From the NCBI GenBank assembly GCA_934230415.1, contig CAKQEW010000004.1, positions 1,445-65,444 on the forward strand: a stretch of 64,000 nt of DNA, read 5' to 3'. Within the stretch, counting starts at the first letter, position 1, and each line of letters begins with the position of its first letter. The notes under the pieces are model-generated. The model searched no databases, was not told the origin of the DNA, and was given only the letters and a program-made list of their open reading frames with translations. The position numbers and the translations under genes are program-made. Below are positions 3,049 through 60,863 of this stretch, in pieces. This DNA is from an uncultured Alphaproteobacteria bacterium (GTDB lineage: Bacteria > Pseudomonadota > Alphaproteobacteria > Rs-D84).

Positions 3049-3534
3049 TTAATATGTTATTTCATCTAATATCAAGTAAAAATCTGGAACGTGTTTTGGT
3101 GACATGCCATTCAACAAACTAACAGATGCGACCGACCCGAACGGCGTATAAAAACTATCATCAAATTCATAGTATTTACGAATGCATCCGTTGATTTGTT
3201 TTTCTAAATCAGACATTGACATATGAATCATCATATCCCAAACTTTTTCTTGAATTTCGTCATACTTGTAGTCGCCAAACCTGTAATTATCCCAAAAATA
3301 AGACAAGATTTGTTCTGCCTGTTTTTCGTTCAAATCTTTTATGTTTTTTGGAAAATTGTAACGCGGATGTGCCGCGCGATACATATCCAATTTTTCTTGG
3401 TTTACCCCATAAGCATTTTTACGCACATTGACTACGGCTGTTTTTTCTACTGCCTGATTGATAAAATCATCCTTGCTATTGGCAATGGCGCATGCCGGAA
3501 TCAATAAAAACAGAACGAACAAGAATTTCTTCAT
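3049..3534 (-). CDS. Secreted protein with GH108 lysozyme-like core (divergent)
   Basis: Signal peptide MKKFLFVLFLLIPACAIA. YGVNQEKLDMYR..LNEKQAEQILSYFWDNY..VWDMMIH resembles the GH108 domain core. The EGG catalytic motif was not seen. Confidence 0.5.
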   Translation of the reverse strand: MKKFLFVLFLLIPACAIANSKDDFINQAVEKTAVVNVRKNAYGVNQEKLDMYRAAHPRYNFPKNIKDLNEKQAEQILSYFWDNYRFGDYKYDEIQEKVWDMMIHMSMSDLEKQINGCIRKYYEFDDSFYTPFGSVASVSLLNGMSPKHVPDFYLILDEITY

Positions 3535-3566
3535 AATTTGATTATTGCAAAGCAATTGCATAAAAA

Positions 3567-4199: not shown

Positions 4200-4655
4200 T
4201 TATTTGGTTGCCACCGGCGCGTCAACAACAACTGTTTCGGTTTCTTCTGTGACAACGGTGTCGTCCGGCACAGCGTCGGCATCAACCTGTTTGAATGTCA
4301 TTGTTTTGCCGTCGTTTGCGGTCAATGTCAATGTGCCGTCGTTCAGGTTATACTTTTCAACCTGGGTCAAGAACTGGAAATAGTTGCGTTCAGCGTCCAT
4401 TGCGTCGGCTGGGCCCATCATCAGTGTCGTTGCGTCCTGGTCAAACTTTATACGGTCGCCCGATGCGCGGTATGAACCGTTATACAGATTTACAACCTGG
4501 CCATAGAAACGCATGTCGTCCGTATCAAATGCCAGTGTGATGTTTGCGCCATTGCCCGGGGCGATAAATTTTGCGCCACGCAGGCCGTTGTCTGTGTTGC
4601 CACATGCGGCCAGCGCCAACAGTGATACGCCCAGTGTTAATGTTTTGAATGTCAT
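4200..4655 (-). CDS. META-domain (HslJ-like) lipoprotein
   Basis: Lipobox LLALAAC. Body resembles a META domain (RFYGQVVNLYNGSYRASGDRIKF...ERNYFQFL). Hairpin terminator at ~4158-4190. Confidence 0.7.
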   Translation of the reverse strand: MTFKTLTLGVSLLALAACGNTDNGLRGAKFIAPGNGANITLAFDTDDMRFYGQVVNLYNGSYRASGDRIKFDQDATTLMMGPADAMDAERNYFQFLTQVEKYNLNDGTLTLTANDGKTMTFKQVDADAVPDDTVVTEETETVVVDAPVATK

Positions 4656-4846
4656 GATTGAATCTCCCTTTGTTTTTACGTTGTAACGATAACATTATTT
4701 TTCATAAATGCAAGGTTGGACAAGGCGTTTATATTCCCAGGTGTAACCCAGCGTGGGCCCATGCGCCGTGGTTCAAATAAATTTTTCATTTTATGAAAAA
4801 AGTACTTGCGTTTGTTTCCCATACAGTATAACATATGCCTTGCTCT

Positions 4847-4923
4847 GGGGTTGTAGCTCAGCTGGTTAGAGCGTCTGCCTGTCACGCAGAAGGTCGAGGG
4901 TTCGAGCCCCTTCAATCCCGCCA
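4847..4923 (+). tRNA. tRNA-Asp (anticodon GUC), CCA encoded
   Basis: GGGGTTGTAGCTCAGCTGGTTAGAGC..., anticodon loop CTGTCAC, T-loop TTCGAGC, acceptor CAATCCC-G-CCA. Confidence 0.95.
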
Positions 4924-4984
4924 GAATTTACCGCCGTTTCGGCGGTATTTTTTGTTCACAAGGAAATAAATTTGCCCTATAAAT

Positions 4985-5010
4985 AAAAAACGCCCAAACG
5001 GGCGTTTTTT
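4985..5010. terminator. Bidirectional intrinsic terminator (tRNA-Asp / gap)
   Basis: aaaaaacgcccaaacgggcgtttttt: a perfect hairpin flanked by A and T runs. Confidence 0.8.
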
Positions 5011-6010
5011 ATTTAATCAGTTTTCCCATCGCCACGGCGGTGTCGCCCATACGGTTAGAGAATCCCCATTCGTTATCGTACCATGCGGTCACATGAACCA
5101 GCTTGTCGCCCAGGACCTTGGTCTGGCCGGCGTCAAAGATGGAACTGTGTGCATCGTGTGTAAAGTCAATGGAAACCAATGGCAATTCGTTGTATCCGAA
5201 TGTCTTGGACTGGGCGGCGCGCATTGCGTTGTTAACCGCGTCAACGGTGGCATCGCGTTCCAGATTTACAACCAATTCAACGACCGATACATCCGGTGTT
5301 GGTACACGAATCGCCATACCGTCCAATTTCCCGGCCAGTTTTGGCAGAACCAGACCAATCGCCTTGGCCGCGCCGGTGCTGGTTGGAATCATAGACAGGT
5401 TCGCGGCGCGTGCGCGACGGAAATCCTTGTGATTCTTGTCCAACAATTGCTGGTCACCGGTGTATGCATGTACGGTTGTCATCCATCCCGATACGATGCC
5501 GAACGTATCGTCCAGAACCTGGGCCACTGGGGCCAGGCAGTTCGTTGTGCATGACGCGTTTGAAACAATCAGGTCGGTTGGTTTCAGGGTGTCTTGGTTT
5601 ACACCGTACACGATTGTGGCATCCGCGCCCGCCGATGGGGCCGATACCAAAACGCGTTTCGCACCCGCATCCAGGTGAACGCGCGCCTTGTCCGCCGCGG
5701 TAAAGATACCGGTGCATTCCATAACAATATCAATGTCCAATTCGCGCCATGGCAATTTTGTCGGGTCTTTTTCCGCGATGCATTTAATTTTCTGGTCACC
5801 AACGATGATATATTCGCCGTCCAATTTAACATCCATTGGTAATTTCCCATGCACGGAATCATACTGCAACAGGTATGCATTCTGTTCCGCCGGGGCCAAA
5901 TCATTTACGGCCACAAATTCAATATCATCACGTTTTGATTCCAACGCCGCGCGCAGTACCAGGCGACCGATGCGTCCGAATCCGTTAATTGCAACTCTAA
6001 TCTTTGACAT
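5009..6010 (-). CDS. gap: Glyceraldehyde-3-phosphate dehydrogenase, type I
   Basis: N-terminal INGFGRIGR, catalytic SNASCTTNCLAP, C-terminal WYDNEWGFSNR. Confidence 0.95.
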   Translation of the reverse strand: MSKIRVAINGFGRIGRLVLRAALESKRDDIEFVAVNDLAPAEQNAYLLQYDSVHGKLPMDVKLDGEYIIVGDQKIKCIAEKDPTKLPWRELDIDIVMECTGIFTAADKARVHLDAGAKRVLVSAPSAGADATIVYGVNQDTLKPTDLIVSNASCTTNCLAPVAQVLDDTFGIVSGWMTTVHAYTGDQQLLDKNHKDFRRARAANLSMIPTSTGAAKAIGLVLPKLAGKLDGMAIRVPTPDVSVVELVVNLERDATVDAVNNAMRAAQSKTFGYNELPLVSIDFTHDAHSSIFDAGQTKVLGDKLVHVTAWYDNEWGFSNRMGDTAVAMGKLIK

Positions 6011-6074
6011 ATTACTTCCTTTCGTTTTTGTCGGTTAGACACCTGTATCATAGCCTGGGATTGACAAGATTACA

Positions 6075-8325: not shown

Positions 8326-10530
8326 ATGTTTAACGCAGGCGATATTGTCAAAGTTTTAATACCGAATGTTGTCAATGCCGGGTATGATTACCGGCTGACG
8401 GCGCCTGTGGATTTGGGGCAATTTGTGGCATGCCGTGTTATGAACCGACCATATATTGGCGTTGTGTGGGGTGTTGGGGATTCTGGATTGCCGGCGGATA
8501 AAATCAAAGATATATCGGATGTGTATGATGCGCGTCTGCCTGTTTCGGATTTACAGTGGATTGCAAAAATGTCTGGGTGGACACTGATGACGCCGGGTGC
8601 GGTGTTGCGACTGATTGTAAATGTGCCAGATGCGTTTTTGCCACCAAAAATGGAACCGTTATATGGCCTGAATATCACAGATGGCGTCCGCATGACCGCC
8701 CCGCGCCAGGCGGTTTCGGATGCATTTGCGTCAAACGACGGTGACCCAATGTCAGTCGCCGACATTCAAAATATCGCACACGTCAGTTCGTCTGTGGTTC
8801 GTACAATGATAGGTCAGGGGATACTCGTGCCCAGAGAGCAGAGAGCAAAGAGCAGAGAGCAATGTGCCCCCGTATATCACGATTGTGGTAACATAAAATT
8901 AAATACCGAACAACAATCGGCGGCGGATACGATTGGTGCGGCGATTGATGCGGGTGGTTTTTCTGTGTTTTTGCTGGATGGCATCACGGGCAGTGGTAAA
9001 ACCCAGGTTTATTTTGATGCTGCATGGCGCGCATATTCGCGCGGGGCATCTGTATTACTGATGATGCCAGAAATCGCACTGACGGCGCAATTTATGCACC
9101 GGTTTACGGCACGATTTGGTGCTGCGCCCGTTGTGTGGCACAGCAATTTAACCGCGGCGCGTCGGCGTGAAATCTGGCGTGGGGTGTTGCGTGGCGAAAT
9201 TCGTATGGTCGTTGGCACGCGCAGTGCGCTGTTCCTGCCGTGGCAAAATCTGGGGCTGATTGTCGTGGACGAAGAACACGATACATCATATAAACAGGAA
9301 GATATGGGTAACTATCATGCGCGTGATATGGCGGTACTGCGTGCGAAAATCGCCGGATTCCCCGTCGTGTTGGCCAGTGCGACGCCCGCGGCGGAAACGT
9401 TACAGAATACCCAATCAGGTAAATATAAGTTGCTGCGCCTGACGTCACGATTTGGTGGTGCGCAAATGCCAACAATTGAAACGATTGATTTGCGTGAAAA
9501 TCGGCCGGACGCGTATTGTGTGTCAAATGATGCGGACGCCGCGCCCCAGAATGGGTGCCTGTCGGCGCCGATGTGCGCGGCGATTTCTGATACATTGTCC
9601 CAGCATCGCCAGGTAATGTTGTTTATAAATCGGCGCGGATTTGCACCAATTGTTCAGTGTAAAAAATGTGGTTGGGTTGCCCAGTGTCCTGATTGCAGCG
9701 TCAGCATGACATACCATCGTGCGGTGGGTAAATTACTGTGTCATATGTGTGGGCGTACCGCACCAATGCCGACCCGGTGTCCCGATTGTGGTGGTGATGT
9801 ATCCATGCGTGGCGCGGGCCTGGAAAAGATAGCAGAAGAGGTGTCCGTCCGTTTCCCAGCGGCGCGTGTGGCATTGGTATCCAGTGATACGATTTCATCG
9901 CGCCAGGCATTGGAACGCATGGTCACGAAAATGGAAAATGGCGAAATAGATATCGTTATCGGCACCCAGATTCTGGCCAAGGGGCACCATTTTCCGAATC
10001 TGACATTGGTTGGCGTGGTTGATGCCGATATGGGGCTGTTTGGGACAGATTTCCGTGCCGCCGAACACACGTTTCAGCAATTATTCCAGGTCGCCGGTCG
10101 TGCCGGTCGTGGCGAATTTCCGGGGCGGGTGTTACTGCAAACGTATCAACCGGACCATCCGGTCCTGCGTGCGATATGTGCGGGTGACCGTGATGCGTTT
10201 ATGGCATCTGATATGGCGTCGCGTCGTGCGGCGGGAATGCCCCCGTTTGGGCAATTGATTGCGGTGATTGTGGAATGCCAGCGCGAAGACGCGCTGAAAA
10301 AATATTGTGCCGCATTGGCGGCGGCCGTGCCGAACGCGGCGGGCGTAAAAATCATGGGGCCAATCGCGGCGGGCGTGTACCAAATCAGAAACTGGTATCG
10401 TATGCGGTTCCTGGTCGTGGGCGGGGCGACAACATTATTACAACCGGTCGTTGCACATTGGTTGCGCGCGGTGCGCGCCCCCGCCAACATTCGGGTCAAG
10501 GTTGACGTGAACCCGCAAAACTTTATGTAA
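8326..10530 (+). CDS. priA: Primosomal protein N' (replication restart helicase)
   Basis: Walker A GITGSGKTQVY, DEEHD box, Cys-rich zinc region CKKCGW..CPDC..CHMCG..CPDCG, helicase motif VI QVAGRAGRG. Confidence 0.92.
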   Translation: MFNAGDIVKVLIPNVVNAGYDYRLTAPVDLGQFVACRVMNRPYIGVVWGVGDSGLPADKIKDISDVYDARLPVSDLQWIAKMSGWTLMTPGAVLRLIVNVPDAFLPPKMEPLYGLNITDGVRMTAPRQAVSDAFASNDGDPMSVADIQNIAHVSSSVVRTMIGQGILVPREQRAKSREQCAPVYHDCGNIKLNTEQQSAADTIGAAIDAGGFSVFLLDGITGSGKTQVYFDAAWRAYSRGASVLLMMPEIALTAQFMHRFTARFGAAPVVWHSNLTAARRREIWRGVLRGEIRMVVGTRSALFLPWQNLGLIVVDEEHDTSYKQEDMGNYHARDMAVLRAKIAGFPVVLASATPAAETLQNTQSGKYKLLRLTSRFGGAQMPTIETIDLRENRPDAYCVSNDADAAPQNGCLSAPMCAAISDTLSQHRQVMLFINRRGFAPIVQCKKCGWVAQCPDCSVSMTYHRAVGKLLCHMCGRTAPMPTRCPDCGGDVSMRGAGLEKIAEEVSVRFPAARVALVSSDTISSRQALERMVTKMENGEIDIVIGTQILAKGHHFPNLTLVGVVDADMGLFGTDFRAAEHTFQQLFQVAGRAGRGEFPGRVLLQTYQPDHPVLRAICAGDRDAFMASDMASRRAAGMPPFGQLIAVIVECQREDALKKYCAALAAAVPNAAGVKIMGPIAAGVYQIRNWYRMRFLVVGGATTLLQPVVAHWLRAVRAPANIRVKVDVNPQNFM

Positions 10531-10579
10531 TTTTAATTTTCTGTTTGATTTAATTTGCGTATTTGGCTAGCATACCCAT

Positions 10580-10757
10580 TGACATGGGGTGTTCCCATGT
10601 CGGGGATTCAAGACCCCATTAAAACCAGCGTCCATGTGACGATAAAAAACTCCAACACCCACACGGGTTGGAGGGCTGCGAATATATTGAATAAGCACGC
10701 TATAACTGGTTTTATAGTCTTGAACCTCCAACCACCTGAATATTTCGGTGGTTTTTT
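10580..10757 (+). ncRNA. Candidate attenuator-like leader / sRNA, copy A
   Basis: Possible promoter TTGATT-17-TAGCAT (10545-10573). 5' hairpin CATGGG-gtgtt-CCCATG, hairpin CUCCAAC..GGUUGGAG, second CCUCCAACC overlapping terminator AACCACC-loop-GGUGGUU-U6. Homologous to 17485-17654 on the minus strand. Confidence 0.4.
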
Positions 10758-10778
10758 AATGTCACAGGGGGGCCAGTG

Positions 10779-11567
10779 ATGTTTGCAAAAAAATTACTTA
10801 TACCAATAATGATTTTGGCGTTGTCGCCGGCATTTGCCGCGAATTGCGAGGTTTCATTGATAGAGACAACCGATGCCAGCACGACCGGTATTACAAACTG
10901 CATCAATGGTGAATTATACCAATTTGGCAGCAATGTGTTTGAATCATGTCTGGATTGTAAACCTGGTGTCAAGAGCATAGAAACAACATACGTATCCAGC
11001 AGTTGCAACCAATCCACAACACGGGTAATTTGCGCCACCACATGCACATCGGAATTGGGCGCCGAAACCAGCACGGTTGGATGCGACCTGGCCGAGGTAT
11101 ATAATTTTGGTGGCGGGTCGTACACAACGTGCAAACAATGCTCAAATGGATATAAGGCCCAAACCGACACGTACACGGATTTACAGTGCACAAACACTGT
11201 GACGTATACCAAATGCGTGGTTGACCCGACTGCCGAATGTACCGATGATTCTGATTGTGATGATGTCCTAGAGACGCCTGATTCCACTGGGCGTGCCCTG
11301 GCACGGACGGGTGGATATTGCAGTGGCGGTGAATGTGCATATCAGGATGAATATTATGTCTGTGTGGCCGGTTATTATGGCAATGGTGAAACATGTACAA
11401 AATGCCCCGCCAGTGCCGATGGCGCGACCGTGACGACGTTCTTTGAAACGACACCGACCTTGTCGTGGACCACAGATGTTCGTGGGTGCTTTATTGCCAA
11501 GGATACCACGGGAACCGACACGGCGGGTTCATTTATATATGAAAACAAGTGCAGTTATTCAGAATAA
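10779..11567 (+). CDS. Secreted cysteine-rich repeat protein (CxxC / furin- or TNFR-like repeats)
   Basis: Signal peptide ...LALSPAFA. About 30 Cys occur in recurring C-x2-C..GY contexts (CLDCKPG, CKQCSNGY, CTKCPAS). Confidence 0.7.
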   Translation: MFAKKLLIPIMILALSPAFAANCEVSLIETTDASTTGITNCINGELYQFGSNVFESCLDCKPGVKSIETTYVSSSCNQSTTRVICATTCTSELGAETSTVGCDLAEVYNFGGGSYTTCKQCSNGYKAQTDTYTDLQCTNTVTYTKCVVDPTAECTDDSDCDDVLETPDSTGRALARTGGYCSGGECAYQDEYYVCVAGYYGNGETCTKCPASADGATVTTFFETTPTLSWTTDVRGCFIAKDTTGTDTAGSFIYENKCSYSE

Positions 11568-11866: not shown

Positions 11867-12826
11867 CTATACAACCTCGGTCACGGCGCGCAGTGCGCCA
11901 TCACGCGATAATTGTACAACGCGAATCTTTTTCTTCATTTCTGCAATCAGGTCGGTGCGATTATACGCCGGTTGGGTATGCAGAATACGGTCGGCAAACG
12001 CTGCGTATGCGGCATCGGCACTCTCGGCATGAATGGTGGTATAGAAATGGTCGTGTCCCGTCCCCAGCATTTCCCACAGAACCGCCGCATTGTCCGTGGA
12101 AATTTCCCCGCCGATAATAACATCTGGCGTCATACGTACCACCAAATCCAACAGGCGCGCATAATTAAACGAATTTGTCTGTTCGGTACGCGACAGGACA
12201 AAGTGAACACGGTTTGCCTGCGGAACACGAATTTCACGCGCATCTTCCACGGTAATCACACGACTGTTTTGGTCAATCAGGGTCAGCATGTGATTCAAAA
12301 ACGTTGTTTTACCGGTTGCGGTCGCACCGCTGATTAAAATCGGACTGCCGTCATTAATGGCAGACATCAGTCTGTCATATGGGTCATCGGGACGCACGTT
12401 CTGGCGTGGTTTAACCTTTAACAACGGTTTGCCACGTGTCAGGCCGTAATTTGCAAATGACGTATCGTGGGCCGTGGCACCACGTATGTTCAGGGCAACG
12501 CCACCTGTGACATCGCGTTCATCATACTGAACGTTTGGCCCCGCAATTGCCGAAAAACGATGGTTGCCCGCCAACGTGGCATACACGACCGGTATACCGT
12601 GAACCGGGTCAAATGGCAAATCATATATATTTGCAACCGTGTGAATTAAATCCACCAAATATTGTTTGGTCAGTATCGGCGCATCATACGCAACCCACGG
12701 CACGCGTGCACCGTGCAATCGCATCCACACCTGGCCGGCGTGGTTGATTGCGATTTCTTCAACAAACGACGGGCGGTAAAATTCCGCCAGTGGTTTCAGC
12801 AAAGAATCCAGAACTACATTTGACAT
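11867..12826 (-). CDS. VirB11-family type IV secretion ATPase (orphan)
   Basis: 319 aa. Walker A SGATATGKTT, ITVEDAREI (Asp box), GGEISTDNA and GHDHFYTTIHA (His box) are typical of the T2SS/T4SS traffic ATPase family at VirB11 size. Confidence 0.8.
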   Translation of the reverse strand: MSNVVLDSLLKPLAEFYRPSFVEEIAINHAGQVWMRLHGARVPWVAYDAPILTKQYLVDLIHTVANIYDLPFDPVHGIPVVYATLAGNHRFSAIAGPNVQYDERDVTGGVALNIRGATAHDTSFANYGLTRGKPLLKVKPRQNVRPDDPYDRLMSAINDGSPILISGATATGKTTFLNHMLTLIDQNSRVITVEDAREIRVPQANRVHFVLSRTEQTNSFNYARLLDLVVRMTPDVIIGGEISTDNAAVLWEMLGTGHDHFYTTIHAESADAAYAAFADRILHTQPAYNRTDLIAEMKKKIRVVQLSRDGALRAVTEVV

Positions 12827-17484: not shown

Positions 17485-17654
17485 ATAAAAACCACCAGAT
17501 ACATTCGGGTGGTTGGAGGTTAAGAACTAAGCAAGATGTTAGTGCTGTTTATTTGATATTCAACAGCCCTCCAACCGACGGTTGGAGGTTTTTTGTGTCC
17601 CCACGGACAATCTTGCCGGAGTTCTTACACCCCACAATGGTAACACACCATTGC
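17485..17654 (-). ncRNA. Candidate attenuator-like leader / sRNA, copy B
   Basis: Minus-strand promoter TTGTGT-17-TATAAT (-10 at 17661-17666). 5' hairpin CAATGGT-gtgt-TACCATTG, perfect 9-bp hairpin CCUCCAACC-guc-GGUUGGAGG, second CCUCCAACC, terminator plus U-run ending ~18 nt before the XRE start codon. Confidence 0.45.
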
Positions 17655-17698: not shown

Positions 17699-17881
17699 AA
17701 AAAAAACGCCGCCGGTCGCCCGGCGGTGTTTCCGAATGCCCTGAAAGGAAGGAAAGGAGAAAAAGAAATGGGCATTCTAAACTAAATTGGGTTGGGGCCC
17801 AGAGTCCAGAGGAGAGAGAATGTAGGAGGGAGTCTGAATCCCTGAACCCCGTGTCAATCGGGTTTGCACCCCCTTTTGACG
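17699..17881 (-). ncRNA. Candidate sRNA C with pyrimidine-rich (anti-SD-like) loop
   Basis: Minus-strand TTGACA (17911-17916)-17-TACATT (17888-17893). An 8-bp stem GAAUGCCC/GGGCAUUC encloses the loop AUUUCUUUUUCUCCUUUCCUUCCUUUCA. Strong terminator CACCGCCGG-loop-CCGGCGGCG-U8 at 17699-17728. Confidence 0.3.
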
Positions 17882-18079: not shown

Positions 18080-18322
18080 ATGACACACGAAGATGTATGG
18101 CGCGCCATAGAACGTTTCGCCAATGAACACGGAATGTCGTGTTCGGGTCTGGCCAAGTGCAGTGGGTTGGATCCGACCACATTTAATCGCAGTAAACGCT
18201 ATTCGCGCGCGGGGCAACCGCGCTGGCCATCAACCAACAGCATTTCAAAGATACTGTCATCCACTGGGGCGAATATCGCGGATTTTACCAAGTTTATTGA
18301 AAAATGTCCGGGTCACGATTAA
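18080..18322 (+). CDS. Short HTH protein resembling the N-terminal domain of alphaproteobacterial S24/LexA-like prophage repressors
   Basis: VWRAIERFANEHGMSCSGLAKCSGLDPTTFNRSKR....RWPSTNSISKIL. No S24 peptidase domain follows. Confidence 0.6.
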   Translation: MTHEDVWRAIERFANEHGMSCSGLAKCSGLDPTTFNRSKRYSRAGQPRWPSTNSISKILSSTGANIADFTKFIEKCPGHD

Positions 18323-18831
18323 ATCTGGGTATGTTTTTACAAATGTCACCGCGGGCGCGTCCTGCGGTGATTTTTATGGACAATCGGGCACACGTCGTTT
18401 ATCCTGGACATATGTTAACAGGAATTCGGATTTATTCATCTGATAAAATATGGCGGCATGTGCTGGCCAATCTGAATGCAACGGTACTGGATGCGCCGGA
18501 CGTGACCGCGGTGAATATGGATGATTTGGATGTGCGTTCGCAATGCACCCCCACGGAATTAAAGGCGGCAATTCTGGGCGCGATGGATAACAGCGATATT
18601 ATTCGCGGTGTATTTGGGCGTGATGTCGCATTGGCCCGAATCCCGCGCCAGATTATAATATTGTTGGCGCAAACGGGTGGTATGCGCGCCGCAGATCTGA
18701 AGGTTGCCCTGGGGTATTCCCCAAATGCCACAACGCATACGGTGGATACGGCGATATATCAACTGCGCCGGACATTCGGACATAACATCGTTCAAAATGA
18801 AAATGGGGTGTATAAAATTGGCCGGATATAA
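18304..18831 (+). CDS. Putative winged-helix (OmpR/PhoB C-terminal-like) DNA-binding protein; start uncertain
   Basis: C-terminal TVDTAIYQLRRTFGHNIVQNENGVYKIG resembles the Trans_reg_C recognition helix and wing. Several in-frame Met candidates (18376, 18412). Confidence 0.45.
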   Translation: MSGSRLNLGMFLQMSPRARPAVIFMDNRAHVVYPGHMLTGIRIYSSDKIWRHVLANLNATVLDAPDVTAVNMDDLDVRSQCTPTELKAAILGAMDNSDIIRGVFGRDVALARIPRQIIILLAQTGGMRAADLKVALGYSPNATTHTVDTAIYQLRRTFGHNIVQNENGVYKIGRI

Positions 18832-19486
18832 ACTGATTTCATTTGATAAAATTCCCAGTACCCAGACATATGCCATGGATATGGTCGCACGTGGTATCGC
18901 GCGCGACCACACCGTCGTCATGGCCGAAGCGCAATCGGCGGGGCGTGGGCGGTATCGCCGGACATGGGTGTCGCATCATGGTAACCTGTACGCCAGTTTT
19001 ATTTATCACGCCGAAGAACGCAATCCGAAATTATCATATATGGTCGCGGTTGCAATTGCGGAAACGATTTTGTCGTTTGGTATAACGCCATCAATCAAAT
19101 GGCCGAACGATATTCTGATTGATGGGAAAAAGGTCTGTGGTGTTCTGATTGAATATGCCGGCGCATTTGTAATTGTGGGAATTGGCATAAACATCAAATC
19201 AAACCCAACGGTCGCAGAAAACAAGACAACAAAATTGGAAAATTACGCCGATGTCCAGAAATCAGAATTACTGACGCGCCTGATGCGTAACTTGGATAAA
19301 TGGATGCGTACCGATTTTGTTAATGTGCGTGCACGTTGGATGGAATTGGCCGCCGGTCTGCACAAGATTGTAAAGTACCGGGGCGAGGCCGTTGAACTGA
19401 TTGGTATTAACGATAATGGTGCGCTGGTTTTGCGACGTGATACAGAATATTTCTTGGCATATGGTGATGAAATCAGTATGAAATAA
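18803..19486 (+). CDS. birA: Biotin--[acetyl-CoA-carboxylase] ligase
   Basis: SFDKIPSTQTY, AEAQSAGRGRYRRTWVS (GRGRxGR motif), KWPNDILIDGKKVCGVLIE. Confidence 0.85.
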   Translation: MGCIKLAGYKLISFDKIPSTQTYAMDMVARGIARDHTVVMAEAQSAGRGRYRRTWVSHHGNLYASFIYHAEERNPKLSYMVAVAIAETILSFGITPSIKWPNDILIDGKKVCGVLIEYAGAFVIVGIGINIKSNPTVAENKTTKLENYADVQKSELLTRLMRNLDKWMRTDFVNVRARWMELAAGLHKIVKYRGEAVELIGINDNGALVLRRDTEYFLAYGDEISMK

Positions 19487-19530
19487 ATGCCAGATTTCTG
19501 CGGGTTGTGGGGCGTGTCAAAAATACACGC

Positions 19531-19559
19531 TTGACTTTTATTGCGATTTGTGATACTAT
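19531..19559 (+). promoter_or_regulatory. Consensus-like promoter TTGACT-17-TACTAT
   Basis: -35 at 19531-19536, -10 at 19554-19559, 17-nt spacer. Confidence 0.5.
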
Positions 19560-19585
19560 ATGACACATCAACAAGCAAGATTCTG

Positions 19586-19607
19586 TCCGCATATAGCGGA
19601 TTTTTTT
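19586..19607 (+). terminator. Intrinsic terminator 1 upstream of the lysis genes
   Basis: TCCGC-atata-GCGGA followed by T7. Confidence 0.55.
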
Positions 19608-19619
19608 ATGCTGTTTTTT

Positions 19620-19648
19620 GACCGCGAATTTCATCGCGGTCTTTTTTT
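19620..19648 (+). terminator. Intrinsic terminator 2 upstream of the lysis genes
   Basis: 8-bp stem GACCGCGA-atttca-TCGCGGTC followed by T7. Only 24 nt remain before the endolysin ATG. Confidence 0.8.
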
Positions 19649-19671
19649 ACGCAATACGGGGGAAAATAAAA

Positions 19672-20076
19672 ATGGAACTGATTTTGAATCCAGACCATAC
19701 GCGTGGCGATGCATACAAAATTGCGCGTGTTGTTTATGCCGAAACAGGTGCGACATCGTTGCCATTGGTTGAAGGATTCGCATCAATGATTGCAAATATC
19801 GCACGTGCACGTGGTATATCACCCGTAATGGTTGTGTCTGATGAAAATACGTTTGGTGCGCTGCGTCCGAATAATTCGCGTCATGGCGCATTAAATGTAC
19901 GGCCAGATTCACGTGCGTTTCAAATGTGCCTGCGTGTGGTGACGCGAATGCTGCATGGAAATTTACCAGATTGCTGTAATGGCGCAACACGTTTCCATCG
20001 TGATGATGAAATGCCAGATTGGGCAACATCGCGTGGATATATCGCCGATATTGATGGTGTGCTGTTTTATTTGTAG
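19672..20076 (+). CDS. Cell-wall hydrolase, SleB / Hydrolase_2 family (endolysin)
   Basis: IARVVYAETGATS...MIANIARARG...ATRFHRDDEMPDWA pattern of SleB-type amidase/lysin domains. Confidence 0.75.
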   Translation: MELILNPDHTRGDAYKIARVVYAETGATSLPLVEGFASMIANIARARGISPVMVVSDENTFGALRPNNSRHGALNVRPDSRAFQMCLRVVTRMLHGNLPDCCNGATRFHRDDEMPDWATSRGYIADIDGVLFYL

Positions 20077-20086
20077 TGGTGGTGAT

Positions 20087-20290
20087 ATGCAAAAAATAAT
20101 TAATGGTGGTTTTTTGTCGGACCGGCGCACGCAAATAATGTCATGTGTTGGCGTGTTATCAGCGGTGGCGGCATATGTGGTCGGTGACACGGATGTGTTT
20201 GTCATGTTACAGACGATATTCACATTGGGTGGAATTTATTTTATGAACAAACAAAAAAACAAAGGACATGATGATGGAACAAATTCCTGA
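20087..20290 (+). CDS. Holin-like small membrane protein (two predicted TM helices)
   Basis: 67 aa; GGTGGTGA RBS; hydrophobic stretches IMSCVGVLSAVAAYVV and VFVMLQTIFTLGGIYFM; charged C-terminus; lies directly after the endolysin. Confidence 0.5.
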   Translation: MQKIINGGFLSDRRTQIMSCVGVLSAVAAYVVGDTDVFVMLQTIFTLGGIYFMNKQKNKGHDDGTNS

Positions 20291-20930
20291 AAAATTTAAA
20301 AATTCTGATGGAACATTAAACACAGATGCATTATTGAAATCTTATTCTGAATTGGAAAAGAAAATCGGAACGATGATATCAATACCATCATCCGACAGTG
20401 ATGATGCCGCGCGTGCACGATTTAATCATGCAATTGGTGTGCCCGAATCGGCCGATGAATATCCACAAAATGATTTGTTTGATGATGCTGATGTGCGTAA
20501 AAAATTCTGGGACATAGGTTTAACTTCATCCCAGGTTGAAAAAATTTATCAGGTTGCCCAGGATTTTTTATCACCTGTGTTGTCTGATTTATTTACAGCA
20601 CAACAAACAGAATCAGCAATATCAGAATTGCGAAATTATTTTGGTGGTGATGAAAAAATGCAAACGGCAATGCGTGAAATAAATGCGTTTGGTACGCGTT
20701 TCTTGCCCGCGGATGCGTTTGATGAATTATGTTCCAGTCCCCAGGGAATCCAAGGTGTTTATCAAATGATGCAATCAATGGAACCACATGTACAAACGTC
20801 CGATGCGAATGATACAAATTTATCAGATAATGATTTGCGACGCATGATGCGTAATCCAAAATATTGGCGCGATCATGATTCTGAATACGTGCGAAAAATT
20901 GAAAACGGTTTTAAAAAATTATATTCGTGA
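20268..20930 (+). CDS. Putative phage scaffolding protein
   Basis: N-terminus IPEKFKNSDGTLNTDALLKSYSELEKKIG recalls podovirus scaffold/assembly proteins. Acidic and helical; positioned before the capsid gene. Confidence 0.5.
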   Translation: MMMEQIPEKFKNSDGTLNTDALLKSYSELEKKIGTMISIPSSDSDDAARARFNHAIGVPESADEYPQNDLFDDADVRKKFWDIGLTSSQVEKIYQVAQDFLSPVLSDLFTAQQTESAISELRNYFGGDEKMQTAMREINAFGTRFLPADAFDELCSSPQGIQGVYQMMQSMEPHVQTSDANDTNLSDNDLRRMMRNPKYWRDHDSEYVRKIENGFKKLYS

Positions 20931-54183: not shown

Positions 54184-55743
54184 ATGAAGATTAGCAAAGT
54201 TCATATTCATAATATCTATTCAATCCAAGACGCAGAATTCACGCTGGCTGATTTTAACATGATGGTCGGTAAAAATGGTGTCGGCAAAAGCAATATATTG
54301 AATATCCTGAACGGATTTTTCCAGGGTGGGGCGCATTGCGGTCTGATGTGCCCGGGCATGGCGTATGCAAACAGCGCCCCCCAGGAACCATTGTGGATAG
54401 AGGTTGAATTGGACCTGACAGAATCTGAATTTGCCGCGTTGCCAGATGAATACCAGGCAATCCCGAACAAATTGCGCATTCGTAAAACAATCGCGAATGT
54501 AGAGGCCGTCCTGGCAGAATTGGCTAACGAACCGGGCGTTACCAATGTCCCAAATGAAACCAGCACACGCATTTATACGAAAAACGGCATGGTAAAATCA
54601 GACTATAAAATACCGTGCGATGTTGTCTTTGTTGCGCCGACAAATTATGGCCAATCGCAATTTATGGGTGAAAAAGCCCCCGACCAGGCGCAATTGGATT
54701 CGGCCGCCACAATACTGCACAGTTCGGATACCATGGTTCACCTGGATATAGAGGATATAAAAGATGTTGGTGCGGCGCACGCGCTGATTGGCATGCATGA
54801 ATTTGGAATGTCGCCAAACCAATCGTGGGTGAAAATGAGTTCTGGTGCCCAGCACGCCGGCCAAATATCCAGCGCGGCCACCAAGGCAAAAGACCCAAAT
54901 CGTCTGACATTATTGTTGTGTGATGAACCGGAAAATTCGCTGCACCCCAGTTACCTGTCGGCGGCGGCGGGGACATTGCGTAATTTTGCCAATCAGCCGA
55001 ATTGTCAGGTTGTTGTCACGACGCACAGTCCACAGTTGGTTGCAGAAAACGCGACCGATTTGACGAATATTATGCGCCTGGACAGGTATGATGGCGCAAC
55101 GCGCGTACACCAATATCCCGCAATTACCCAGGACAAGATTTATAATTTGACATTCCTGAATAACCTGGATCGTGCAAAAATGTTCTTCTCTGATCGTGTG
55201 ATTTTGGTAGAGGGTGAAACAGAAACCGCATTTTTCAACTATATGACAGAAAACAATCTGTTCCGAAATGAACCAACCCCAGAAAATGTCACGCTGGTTA
55301 ATTGCCAGGGCAAATTCTATATCAAATATTTCGCTGATATTTTGACACAATATGGTATTCCGCATACGACGCTGTGGGATTTGGATCGTGGCAAATACTC
55401 AACAGATAACGAAAACATATTGGGGTGTTTTAACGATTTGATGTCGGTTGGGTATTGTTTCTATGAAAGTATAGAACCGTTTTGCGGCATAACCAAGGTT
55501 CAAAACTTGCCGGCGCACGTGAACTTTATCCAGAAATATACCGATGGTACAATTGCCCAGAATAAACGTGACCAACTGGTCACGCTGTTCAGCAACCTGG
55601 TTCATGCGCCCGAAACACCCGAACCGGCGGTCGCGGACCCGGATTTTAAAACGGTGCAATCGTTTAAGCGGGTGCCAACAATTACCGCACAACCCGTTGC
55701 GCTGGGCCTGTATCGGGTAACATTGCGCGGCAAAACAAAATAG
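54184..55743 (+). CDS. OLD-family nuclease (ABC-type ATPase + Toprim)
   Basis: Walker A GKNGVGKSN, signature-like MSSGAQH, Walker B LLLCDEPENSLHP, TTHSP, Toprim ILVEGETETAFF and LWDLD. The last 9 codons lie in a 175-bp repeat. Confidence 0.8.
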   Translation: MKISKVHIHNIYSIQDAEFTLADFNMMVGKNGVGKSNILNILNGFFQGGAHCGLMCPGMAYANSAPQEPLWIEVELDLTESEFAALPDEYQAIPNKLRIRKTIANVEAVLAELANEPGVTNVPNETSTRIYTKNGMVKSDYKIPCDVVFVAPTNYGQSQFMGEKAPDQAQLDSAATILHSSDTMVHLDIEDIKDVGAAHALIGMHEFGMSPNQSWVKMSSGAQHAGQISSAATKAKDPNRLTLLLCDEPENSLHPSYLSAAAGTLRNFANQPNCQVVVTTHSPQLVAENATDLTNIMRLDRYDGATRVHQYPAITQDKIYNLTFLNNLDRAKMFFSDRVILVEGETETAFFNYMTENNLFRNEPTPENVTLVNCQGKFYIKYFADILTQYGIPHTTLWDLDRGKYSTDNENILGCFNDLMSVGYCFYESIEPFCGITKVQNLPAHVNFIQKYTDGTIAQNKRDQLVTLFSNLVHAPETPEPAVADPDFKTVQSFKRVPTITAQPVALGLYRVTLRGKTK

Positions 55744-55889
55744 CCCCCCGGCAGGTGTTCAAAATTCTTTGCCGCCCCGCATTTTGTACATGCAGATTTT
55801 GGTAAAAAAACTGACTCTCTACGACGTTTGCAGGATGTGTGTTTGACACAAAACAAAACCCCACCAATGGTGGGGTTAATCTTTGGCTC
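55715..55889. repeat. 175-bp direct repeat, copy 1 (OLD 3' end, intergenic region, 6 nt of the tRNA-Asn 3' end)
   Basis: Near-identical to 60618-60793; I counted 3 differences (C6 vs C7, C/T, T/G). Confidence 0.9.
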
Positions 55890-60617: not shown

Positions 60618-60793
60618 GGGTAACATTGCGCGGCAAAACAAAATAGCCCCCCCGGCAGGTGTTCAAAATTCTTTGCCGCCCTGCATTTTGTACATGCAGA
60701 TTTTGGTAAAAAAACTGACTCTCTACGACGTTTGCAGGATGTGTGTTTGACACAAAACAAAACCCCACCAATGGTGGGGGTAATCTTTGGCTC
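60618..60793. repeat. 175-bp direct repeat, copy 2 (abuts and overlaps the tRNA-Asn 3' end)
   Basis: See copy 1. Contains the terminator hairpin ccccaccaatggtgggg serving tRNA-Asn. Confidence 0.9.
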
Positions 60794-60863
60794 GGGCAAC
60801 TGGACTCGAACCAGTGACATACGGATTAACAGTCCGTTGTTCTACCGACTGAACTATGCCCGA
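60788..60863 (-). tRNA. tRNA-Asn (anticodon GUU), CCA encoded
   Basis: Reverse complement TCGGGCATAGTTCAGTCGGTAGAACAACGGACTGTTAATCCGTATGTCACTGGTTCGAGTCCAGTTGCCCGAGCCA is a canonical cloverleaf. Confidence 0.95.

Follow-up and report, generated by a model that had tools for sequence, protein, structure and literature searches.

A stretch of 64,000 nt from contig CAKQEW010000004.1, which was assembled from an uncultured alphaproteobacterium of the order Rs-D84, carries two copies of a putative leader RNA, each upstream of a gene. This whole stretch is referred to as the window. Copy A (10581-10757, plus strand) precedes the gene of a cysteine-rich secreted protein and copy B (17654-17487, minus strand) that of a small helix-turn-helix (HTH) protein of the XRE family. 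The two copies are homologous, with 76% identity over about 245 nt, and lie mutually inverted 6.7 kb apart; region 10545-10778 has its partner on the minus strand at about 17700-17470. The elements of the two units, including the Shine-Dalgarno sequences (SD), are the following.

10545-10550, plus strand: copy A, -35 box TTGATT, read from the sequence, with a 17-nt spacer to the -10 box
10568-10573, plus strand: copy A, -10 box TAGCAT of the predicted promoter, 34 nt before the core
10581-10601, plus strand: copy A, P1, 5'-terminal hairpin GACAUGGG/GUGUU/CCCAUGUC
10602-10617, plus strand: copy A, local hairpin G1:G1' (GGGG...CCCC) with strand a (UCAAGA, 10608-10613) in its loop
10621-10628, plus strand: copy A, strand b (AAAACCAG), partner of b' (10706-10713)
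10629-10641, plus strand: copy A, P4, small hairpin CGUC-CAUGU-GACG
10642-10649, plus strand: copy A, A-rich linker AUAAAAAA, conserved columns in alignments A2, A3 and A6
10650-10656, plus strand: copy A, segment 1 (CUCCAAC), 5' arm of P5, putative anti-antiterminator
10666-10675, plus strand: copy A, segment 2 (GGUUGGAGGG), partner of segment 1 (in P5) or of segment 3 (putative antiterminator)
10676-10699, plus strand: copy A, P6, short covarying stem with the conserved loop GAAUAUAUUGAAUAA
10700-10717, plus strand: copy A, local hairpin Y:Y' (CUAU...AUAG) with strand b' (CUGGUUUU, 10706-10713) in its loop
10718-10723, plus strand: copy A, strand a' (UCUUGA), partner of loop strand a
10725-10733, plus strand: copy A, segment 3 (CCUCCAACC), complement of segment 2, whose last four bases open the terminator stem
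10730-10757, plus strand: copy A, predicted intrinsic terminator AACCACC/loop/GGUGGUU with its U-run at 10752-10757
10767-10772, plus strand: SD GGGGGG downstream of copy A
10776 (GTG) or 10779 (ATG) to 11567, plus strand: gene of a 263-aa Cys-rich secreted protein with signal peptide, downstream of copy A
17689-17487, minus strand: copy B, whole unit (118 bits with the covariance model)
17689-17684 and 17666-17661, minus strand: copy B, predicted -35 and -10 boxes
17653-17635, 17633-17511 and 17514-17487, minus strand: copy B, P1, core and predicted terminator
17588-17580, minus strand: copy B, segment 1 (CCUCCAACC)
17576-17567, minus strand: copy B, segment 2 (GGUUGGAGGG)
17519-17511, minus strand: copy B, segment 3 (CCUCCAACC)
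17475-17471 and 17466-17122, minus strand: SD GGGGG and gene of a 114-aa XRE-family HTH protein (HTH_3, E = 8.6e-12), downstream of copy B

An earlier note on this DNA, made from the letters of the window alone, had aligned the two copies block by block, and every block that it listed is present in both. The block GGTTGGAGGGCTG is identical at 10666-10678 (plus) and 17564-17576 (minus), as is AACCTCCAACCACC at 10723-10736 (plus) and 17508-17521 (minus). The 5' hairpins had been described as keeping their loop on differing stems; indeed, GUGUU is common to both copies, on the GACAUGGG/CCCAUGUC stem in copy A and in CAAUGGU-GUGUU-ACCAUUG in copy B (17653-17635). Both copies close with a GC-rich hairpin and a U-run. 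The distance from the end of the U-run to the start codon is 18-21 nt in copy A and 20 nt in copy B, in agreement with the 18-22 nt given before. Both copies share one architecture and fold more stably than shuffled sequences (z = -5.6 for copy A and -7.4 for copy B). When the whole window was searched with the covariance model described below and filters switched off, exactly copies A (98 bits) and B (118 bits) were obtained, the next-best independent site reaching 13 bits. Weak partial matches at 55836 and 60740 were discarded as further copies, as they belong to an unrelated direct repeat of 180 nt.

Relatives of the leader were collected in two scans. In the first one, a species-representative genome collection was searched for the exact two-block pattern GGTTGGAGGG-N30-60-ACCTCCAACC, which yielded at least 120 genome loci compared to roughly 33 estimated by chance. 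Of the 120 listed loci, 115 are true family members, and all but five lie in gut metagenome-assembled genomes (MAGs) or on evidently mis-binned contigs. The MAGs are labelled Ca. Enterousia, Alphaproteobacteria, Rickettsiales or proteobacterium and may hold several loci each (five in RUG12675). Using a covariance model built from 28 hand-checked members (alignment A3), 112 units from 100 sources were recognised in the listed genome loci and 20 additional ones in further genome and viral loci; four of the five pattern matches on predicted viral contigs were confirmed by the model. In the second scan, which covered a metagenome collection, only the P6 loop and the Y hairpin served as anchors and segments 1-3 were ignored, so that ascertainment bias was avoided. 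It returned 85 stretches; in the 80 loci listed, nearly all of which were confirmed by the model, 89 units were found, 76 of them distinct. The pattern scans and the covariance-model searches, the latter of the kind proposed in the earlier note, gave a total of 187 distinct units in gut MAGs and metagenomes of Ca. Enterousia / order Rs-D84, with several units per genome. Members of Ca. Enterousia, which is placed in the uncultured order Rs-D84, are widespread in human and animal guts and have a genome size of about 0.75-1.0 Mb (PMC12306168). Proteins identical to the product of the XRE gene of the window are present in human gut assemblies.

At gathering thresholds, Rfam 15 models matched four tRNAs in the whole window and nothing in the leader, and in region 10400-10900 only chance-level matches were obtained at E <= 10 (SpF01 with 21 bits against a threshold of 55, and p27_CRE), so that the leader matches no Rfam 15 family. 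Full-text literature searches on the motif sequences and on Enterousia found no account of this RNA. It may sit unnamed in one of the large automatic catalogues such as PMC8040213, which comprises thousands of unnamed microbiome RNA candidates and in which HTH-XRE is a frequent neighbour. Judged by sequence, the units apparently represent a new, undescribed family of cis-acting attenuator or riboswitch-like leaders. It is a new family of a known mechanistic kind, the terminator/antiterminator leaders, among which its rich alternative pairings and its high copy number stand out.

Across the family, the units follow one order: a -10 box, a 5' hairpin, a multi-helix core of about 125 nt, an intrinsic terminator, a strong SD and a start codon. 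Of 171 members, 158 have a -10 box of the type TAnnnT at a distance of 30-50 nt on the 5' side of the core, most commonly at 33-34 nt, and 150 have a terminator-like hairpin followed by a U-run. P1 is a feature of the whole family, being present in 88% of members compared to 18% of shuffles; its loop is usually GNGUU and most commonly GUGUU. As for a tertiary partner of this loop, cognate complementarity was equal to non-cognate complementarity in all four regions tested. Outside the helices, the A-rich linker AUAAAAAA, the GAAUAUAUUGAAUAA loop and a GG after P5 are conserved.

Every helix of the leader covaries, including both helices in which segment 2 takes part. In alignment-free comparisons, a:a' was fully paired in 93% of cognate compared to 8% of non-cognate combinations (35 distinct sequences), and the longest run of b:b' had a median of 7 compared to 4.5 (89 distinct loops), with runs of at least 6 in 88% and 16%, respectively. 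Double changes occur at all b:b' pairs. The local hairpins vary in the same manner, with GAGG/CCUC, UGGG/CCCA and CAGG/CCUG as covarying variants of G1:G1' and CUAU/AUAG, CAAU/AUUG, CUAA/UUAG and CUAC/GUAG as variants of Y:Y', and P4 has compensatory changes at five of five pairs. When the complete structure was scored on the MAFFT seed alignment, the two local hairpins being entered as pseudoknots, 92.9% of cells were paired compared to 77% in shuffles and 39-51% with slid partners, and both sides had changed at 24 of 36 pairs; RNAalifold, run unguided on the same alignment, recovered a:a', b:b', P5 and P6. In the independent metagenome set, the structure of the model was paired in 96.6% of cells, compared to 71%, with compensatory changes at 26 of 28 pairs. 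This set has many G-U cells (12, 15 and 21 U-G cells at three pairs), and they occur on the leader strand only, which argues for selection at the RNA level on that strand. Compensatory changes, the absence of which from homologues would have spoken against the element according to the earlier note, are thus abundant.

In the metagenome set, collected independently of segments 1-3, segment 2 (GGUUGGAGG) covaries with segment 1 as well as with segment 3. Segment 2:segment 3 is paired in 98.7% of cells and has compensatory changes at four of nine pairs; for segment 1:segment 2 (P5) the respective values are 96.3% and six of eight pairs. Segment 3 is the better complement to segment 2, segment 1 showing more wobbles and mismatches. 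The canonical segment pair is found in only 36 of the 76 distinct metagenome units, and the segment 2/segment 3 variants of this set include GGUUGGGGG/CCCCCAACC, GGCAGGAGG/CCUCCUGCC, GUCAGGAGG/CCUCCUGAC and GGCUGGAGG/CCUCCAGCC. Nine units in the genome loci that do not follow the search pattern add the variants GGUUGGAGU/ACUCCAACC and GAUUGGAG/CUCCAAUC. There are a few exceptions to the covariation of segments 2 and 3, such as GGCUGGAGG together with CCUCCAACC in locus L139. The terminator stem opens within segment 3 (AACC), and its 3' arm tracks this segment, with UGCC...GGC in L165, L155 and L138 and AGCC...GGC in L198. Since the segment variants and the terminator arm covary, the 1:2/2:3/3:4 logic that had been read from the two copies is maintained by evolution: all three pairings covary in relatives for whose collection segments 1-3 played no part. 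This logic had been called that of a classical attenuator, which is correct for the overlapping pairings but not for the leader peptide. An SD-preceded open reading frame (ORF) extends across segment 1 in 24 of 164 members only, the alignment has no conserved start codon, and the frame over segment 1 in copy A amounts to AUG-UGA. A leader-peptide mechanism was rejected for lack of a conserved SD or ORF over segment 1.

We regard it as probable that the leader is a cis-acting conditional transcription terminator, that is, an attenuator or a riboswitch-like switch, in which transcription, termination and switching are predicted from sequence. The element would be the 5' leader of an mRNA, about 175-180 nt long from the predicted start to the end of the U-run and transcribed from its own sigma-70-type promoter. 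In a termination fold (T fold), a:a' and b:b' would close a junction bearing P4, P5 and P6. Segment 3 would be free, its AACC would join the downstream arm to give the intrinsic terminator, and transcription would halt about 20 nt before the SD of the gene. In the minimum-energy fold, the CCUCC of segment 3 adjoins the long-range helix a:a', which had not been noticed in the earlier note. In a read-through fold (A fold), segment 2 would quit segment 1 and form a 9-bp helix with segment 3, thereby removing the 5' arm of the terminator. This helix would be topologically incompatible with a:a' and b:b': segment 2 lies within the a...a' and b...b' spans and segment 3 beyond them, so that the antiterminator is not nestable with the long-range helices. 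The strands freed in this way would be stored in the local hairpins G1:G1' and Y:Y', RNA polymerase would enter the downstream gene, and the SD would perhaps be spared from pairing with the CCUCC of segment 3 as well. When segment 2:segment 3 was forced in ViennaRNA for 160 members, P1 and P4 were kept, G1:G1' and Y:Y' formed, no terminator was made, and segment 2:segment 3, P6 and Y:Y' met in a three-way junction. As the local hairpins and the long-range helices both covary, they may belong to alternative states. According to the folding model, the T fold is the thermodynamic default, and with termination as default, read-through would depend on an effector, or on a kinetic window, by which the T fold is made less favourable or the A fold more stable. 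The likeliest effector would be a small ligand or a protein recognising the conserved junction, the A-rich linker and the GAAUA...GAAUA loop. What is new in this proposal, compared to the earlier note, is that it does without a leader peptide, that a:a' and b:b' compete with or knot onto two local hairpins, and that the terminator is the default.

The position of the units relative to genes was assessed across the family. About 80% of the units precede a gene, always in the orientation of this gene, and the start codon follows segment 3 at a median distance of 50 nt (interquartile range 45-53). Too few nucleotides separate the SD from the U-run for a separate promoter to fit in, and since orientation, start-codon spacing and the position of the -10 box are fixed, the gene would be reachable only by read-through of the terminator. 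Among 177 evaluable units, 83 are followed by a protein with a signal-peptide-like N-terminus (median 5.1% Cys), 56 by a small protein of 125 aa or less and eight by another product. Pfam searches with 89 downstream proteins gave XRE-type HTH domains in at least 16, Flg_new in four, ABC exporters in two and an EcoRI-type methylase in one, most of the 89 proteins being without a Pfam domain. The fixed spacing, together with these gene classes, fits a cis-acting leader whose regulon would consist of small regulators and of proteins that are secreted or located at the surface. A short leader subtype without P4 (e.g. L034, L040, L047, L042, L113 and L117) precedes proteins of about 70-90 aa that start with M..VLVD.KYFG.. 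and are probably HTH proteins, which suggests that leader subfamilies are tied to gene classes.

Several observations weigh against the interpretation as a conditional terminator. Based on nearest-neighbour energies, the A fold exceeds the minimum by a median of 11.9 kcal/mol in the full leader, and by 7.5 kcal/mol as long as the 3' arm of the terminator has not been made, so that switching would not be spontaneous at equilibrium. Instead of alternating with a:a' and b:b', G1:G1' and Y:Y' could coexist with them as a nested double pseudoknot, which the loop lengths would allow in the terminator state. The set of downstream genes (XRE, Cys-rich secreted proteins, exporters, methylase) points to no metabolite. 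In addition, 30 of the 177 evaluable units (about 17%) have no SD-preceded ORF within 110 nt, and in the tandem array L139:178-980 (plus strand), where four complete units with a -10 box and a terminator each are packed into 800 nt, an ORF follows only the last unit. Further tandem arrays are L100:755-1147, L144:113-835, L153:574-1341 and L212:4714-5021. Such orphan and tandem units suggest that the RNA might serve a function by itself once terminated.

The same units speak for a different explanation, namely that we are mainly dealing with genes of trans-acting small RNAs (sRNAs), in which the single-stranded CCUCC of segment 3, located immediately 5' of the terminator hairpin, is an anti-SD seed, or which sponge a common factor, and that read-through into genes is incidental. 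A -10 box and a terminator belong to every unit, orphan units score an undiminished 82-93 bits with the model, and in the five arrays named above only the last unit stands before a gene. Segment 3 is unpaired or weakly paired in the T fold of copies A and B, and attenuator-derived sRNAs are known in Alphaproteobacteria (rnTrpL). Nevertheless, we consider this explanation improbable, as it leaves unexplained why about 80% of the units have one orientation and a start codon 45-53 nt after segment 3, with no room for a promoter. Moreover, segment 3 is not an invariant seed but changes with segment 2 (CCUCCUGAC with GUCAGGAGG); because the two change together within the molecule, they point to an intramolecular switch rather than to a conserved target in trans, and neither a sponge nor a seed needs a terminator whose 3' arm tracks segment 3. 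Thus, of the trans-acting role considered in the earlier note, the purely trans form is unlikely because spacing and orientation to the start codon are fixed, and room is left by the orphan and tandem copies for a second role in trans.

The folding energies bear on another explanation, a constitutive expression cassette, in which promoter, protective hairpin, folded untranslated region and leaky terminator fix a low expression of accessory genes and the complementarity of segments 2 and 3 is a folding intermediate or a by-product of a duplication of segments 1 and 3. The strong energetic preference for the T fold and the lack of a ligand-related gene set downstream would suit such a cassette, as would the 5'-terminal hairpin in 88% of members, a classic mRNA stabiliser. 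A by-product, however, would not keep compensatory changes that arose independently at four positions of segment 2:segment 3, nor would segment 3 then complement segment 2 more cleanly than segment 1 does, and a stabiliser needs far less than a conserved multi-helix structure of about 125 nt in which unpaired stretches are invariant, so we give this explanation little credence.

That the units are repeated DNA and not functional RNA, i.e. a mobile repeat resembling miniature inverted-repeat transposable elements (MITE) or repetitive extragenic palindromes (REP), or a recombination site that has spread, is very improbable: several copies per genome including the five loci of RUG12675, the inverted placement of the window copies 6.7 kb apart, and four copies on predicted viral contigs, one of them at a prophage edge, would fit, but copies within a genome have diverged (76% in the window) and show compensatory differences and G-U pairs on one strand only, they keep one orientation and a fixed distance relative to the start codon downstream, and blastn gave no match in phage or plasmid collections. 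The MITE/REP origin, which the earlier note had named among the outcomes that would refute its reading, was rejected on divergence, fixed orientation and strand-specific G-U pairs; terminal inverted repeats and target-site duplications were not looked for.

Taking the leader as a conditional terminator, we compared it to known systems. With the trp, his, leu, thr and pheA leaders it shares the overlapping pairings 1:2, 2:3 and 3:4, of which 3:4 is a predicted intrinsic terminator just upstream of the gene. Unlike in leaders of the trp/his type, segment 1 is not overlain by a conserved leader ORF, SD or set of regulatory codons, the downstream genes have no part in amino-acid biosynthesis, there are many copies per genome, and a large extra domain (P1, a:a', b:b', P4 and P6) is present. 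Features are also shared with riboswitches that have terminator expression platforms and occur many times per genome upstream of diverse genes, for example the cyclic di-GMP (c-di-GMP) riboswitches of the classes c-di-GMP-I/GEMM and c-di-GMP-II, which likewise have a multi-helix domain with possible pseudoknots and invariant unpaired nucleotides, an aptamer helix (here P5) that competes with an antiterminator, and tandem arrangements. These classes occur, as here, in many copies per genome before genes of secreted or surface proteins and of regulators. No Rfam model matches the leader even at E <= 10, which sets it apart from them. As in riboswitches, a covariation-supported domain with conserved unpaired nucleotides is combined with an expression platform that overlaps the sensor helix, segment 2 being part of P5 as well as of the antiterminator.

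In the leaders governed by ribonucleic antiterminator (RAT) sites of the Bgl/Sac type, by ANTAR proteins, PyrR or TRAP, an alternative structure before a terminator decides on read-through as well, but none of their motifs is present in our leader and no Rfam match was obtained. The conserved A-rich linker and the repeated motif of the GAAUA...GAAUA loop could be sites at which a protein binds. The 'cuckoo'/CcsR/alpha-r sRNAs and rnTrpL resemble the leader in their alphaproteobacterial hosts, in homologous copies that include tandem ones, in CCUCC motifs and own terminators, and in that a terminated leader possibly acts in trans. In contrast to the 'cuckoo'/alpha-r RNAs, the CCUCC motifs here are located in covarying stems with an internal GGAGG partner and not in hairpin loops of the CCUCCUCCC type, the units are tied to a downstream start codon, and the Rfam models of those RNAs gave no match. 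The T-box model of Rfam matched neither in the window nor in region 10400-10900 at E <= 10, and the downstream genes are unrelated to those of T-box leaders.

There are two copies in the 64 kb of the window and three to five matches on single metagenome contigs of 225-700 kb, where the anchor pattern is estimated to catch about a third of the copies. From these densities and the sensitivity of the pattern, the leader perhaps precedes 1-4% of all genes, mostly those of secreted Cys-rich proteins and small XRE proteins. If so, a major layer of regulation in the Ca. Enterousia / Rs-D84 lineage would have gone unnoticed until now. The leader would also be a clean natural switch of terminator, antiterminator and anti-antiterminator that works without a leader peptide and has covariation evidence for either partner of the shared strand; its domain may be a nested double pseudoknot, and the search for the signal, be it a ligand, a protein or an RNA, becomes directly testable.

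A more far-reaching scenario is put forward tentatively, and we think it rather unlikely as a whole. One signal would be read by roughly 10-40 bistable copies of the leader, which would co-regulate much of the secreted Cys-rich surface proteome and the small XRE regulators, so that the leader would be an orphan riboswitch-like class and the main regulatory device of the lineage. Four strands would each have two maintained partners, one in a local hairpin and one in a long-range helix. A second function, as trans-acting RNAs or decoys, would fall to the terminated leaders and to the orphan and tandem units, possibly in combination with an invariant CU-rich sRNA encoded next to copy B.

This second small RNA gene, of about 165 nt, lies directly upstream of copy B (17709-17872, minus strand). 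It has a promoter-like TTGACA...TACATT and a strong terminator (17726-17709) and folds with z = -4.5. Its two large CU-rich loops, UUCAGACUCCCUCCUACAUUCUCUCUCCUCUGGACU and AUUUCUUUUUCUCCUUUCCUUCCUUUC, are invariant across seven loci and the surrounding stems covary; apart from the window, it was located at L064:~3330-3540, L073:~4280-4490, L097:~4840-5050, L197:~5815-6025, L060 and L114. In at least five loci it stands immediately upstream of a leader unit. Judged by its sequence, it looks like an sRNA of the anti-SD type. In Rfam, only a sub-threshold match to ylbH on the opposite strand was found. For pairing between this RNA and the leader, RNAduplex energies were no better than with shuffled targets in what was a crude test.

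The P6 loop (10680-10694), 15 nt with the sequence GAAUAUAUUGAAUAA, contains a direct repeat of GAAUA and the 8-nt palindrome AAUAUAUU, and in some relatives a variable extra hairpin is inserted between the GAAUA halves. The repeat, the palindrome and the inserted hairpin suggest an internal-loop motif or a site for a protein or for dimerisation. A reading frame in this loop was considered and dismissed: since there are stops in two of three frames and the GUG/GCG position covaries as a base pair, the loop is structural and not coding.

Four units are located on predicted viral contigs. The only viral contig inspected is an IMG/VR contig of 33 kb with a prophage, at the edge of which the unit (L129:12040-12172) precedes a secreted-protein gene, its product being a 316-aa protein without PHROG match; the prophage genes include tail sheath, tape measure, baseplate, endolysin and methyltransferase. 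In the window, a gene of a VirB11/T2SSE-type ATPase (11867-12826, minus strand) lies between the two leader copies, and to the right of copy B unannotated small ORFs occupy 18300-20930 (plus strand). Among them is a 220-aa ORF (20268-20930), the apparent counterpart of which in identical contigs has a weak Pfam match to Phage_T7_Capsid. The genes around the leader copies are possibly derived from a phage or a gene transfer agent.

The direct repeat of about 180 nt mentioned above is found at 55715-55889 and 60618-60793, 4.9 kb apart, with 99-100% identity. Its second copy abuts a tRNA-Asn gene (60788-60863, minus strand), and the repeat looks like the duplicated attachment (att) site of a small integrated element.

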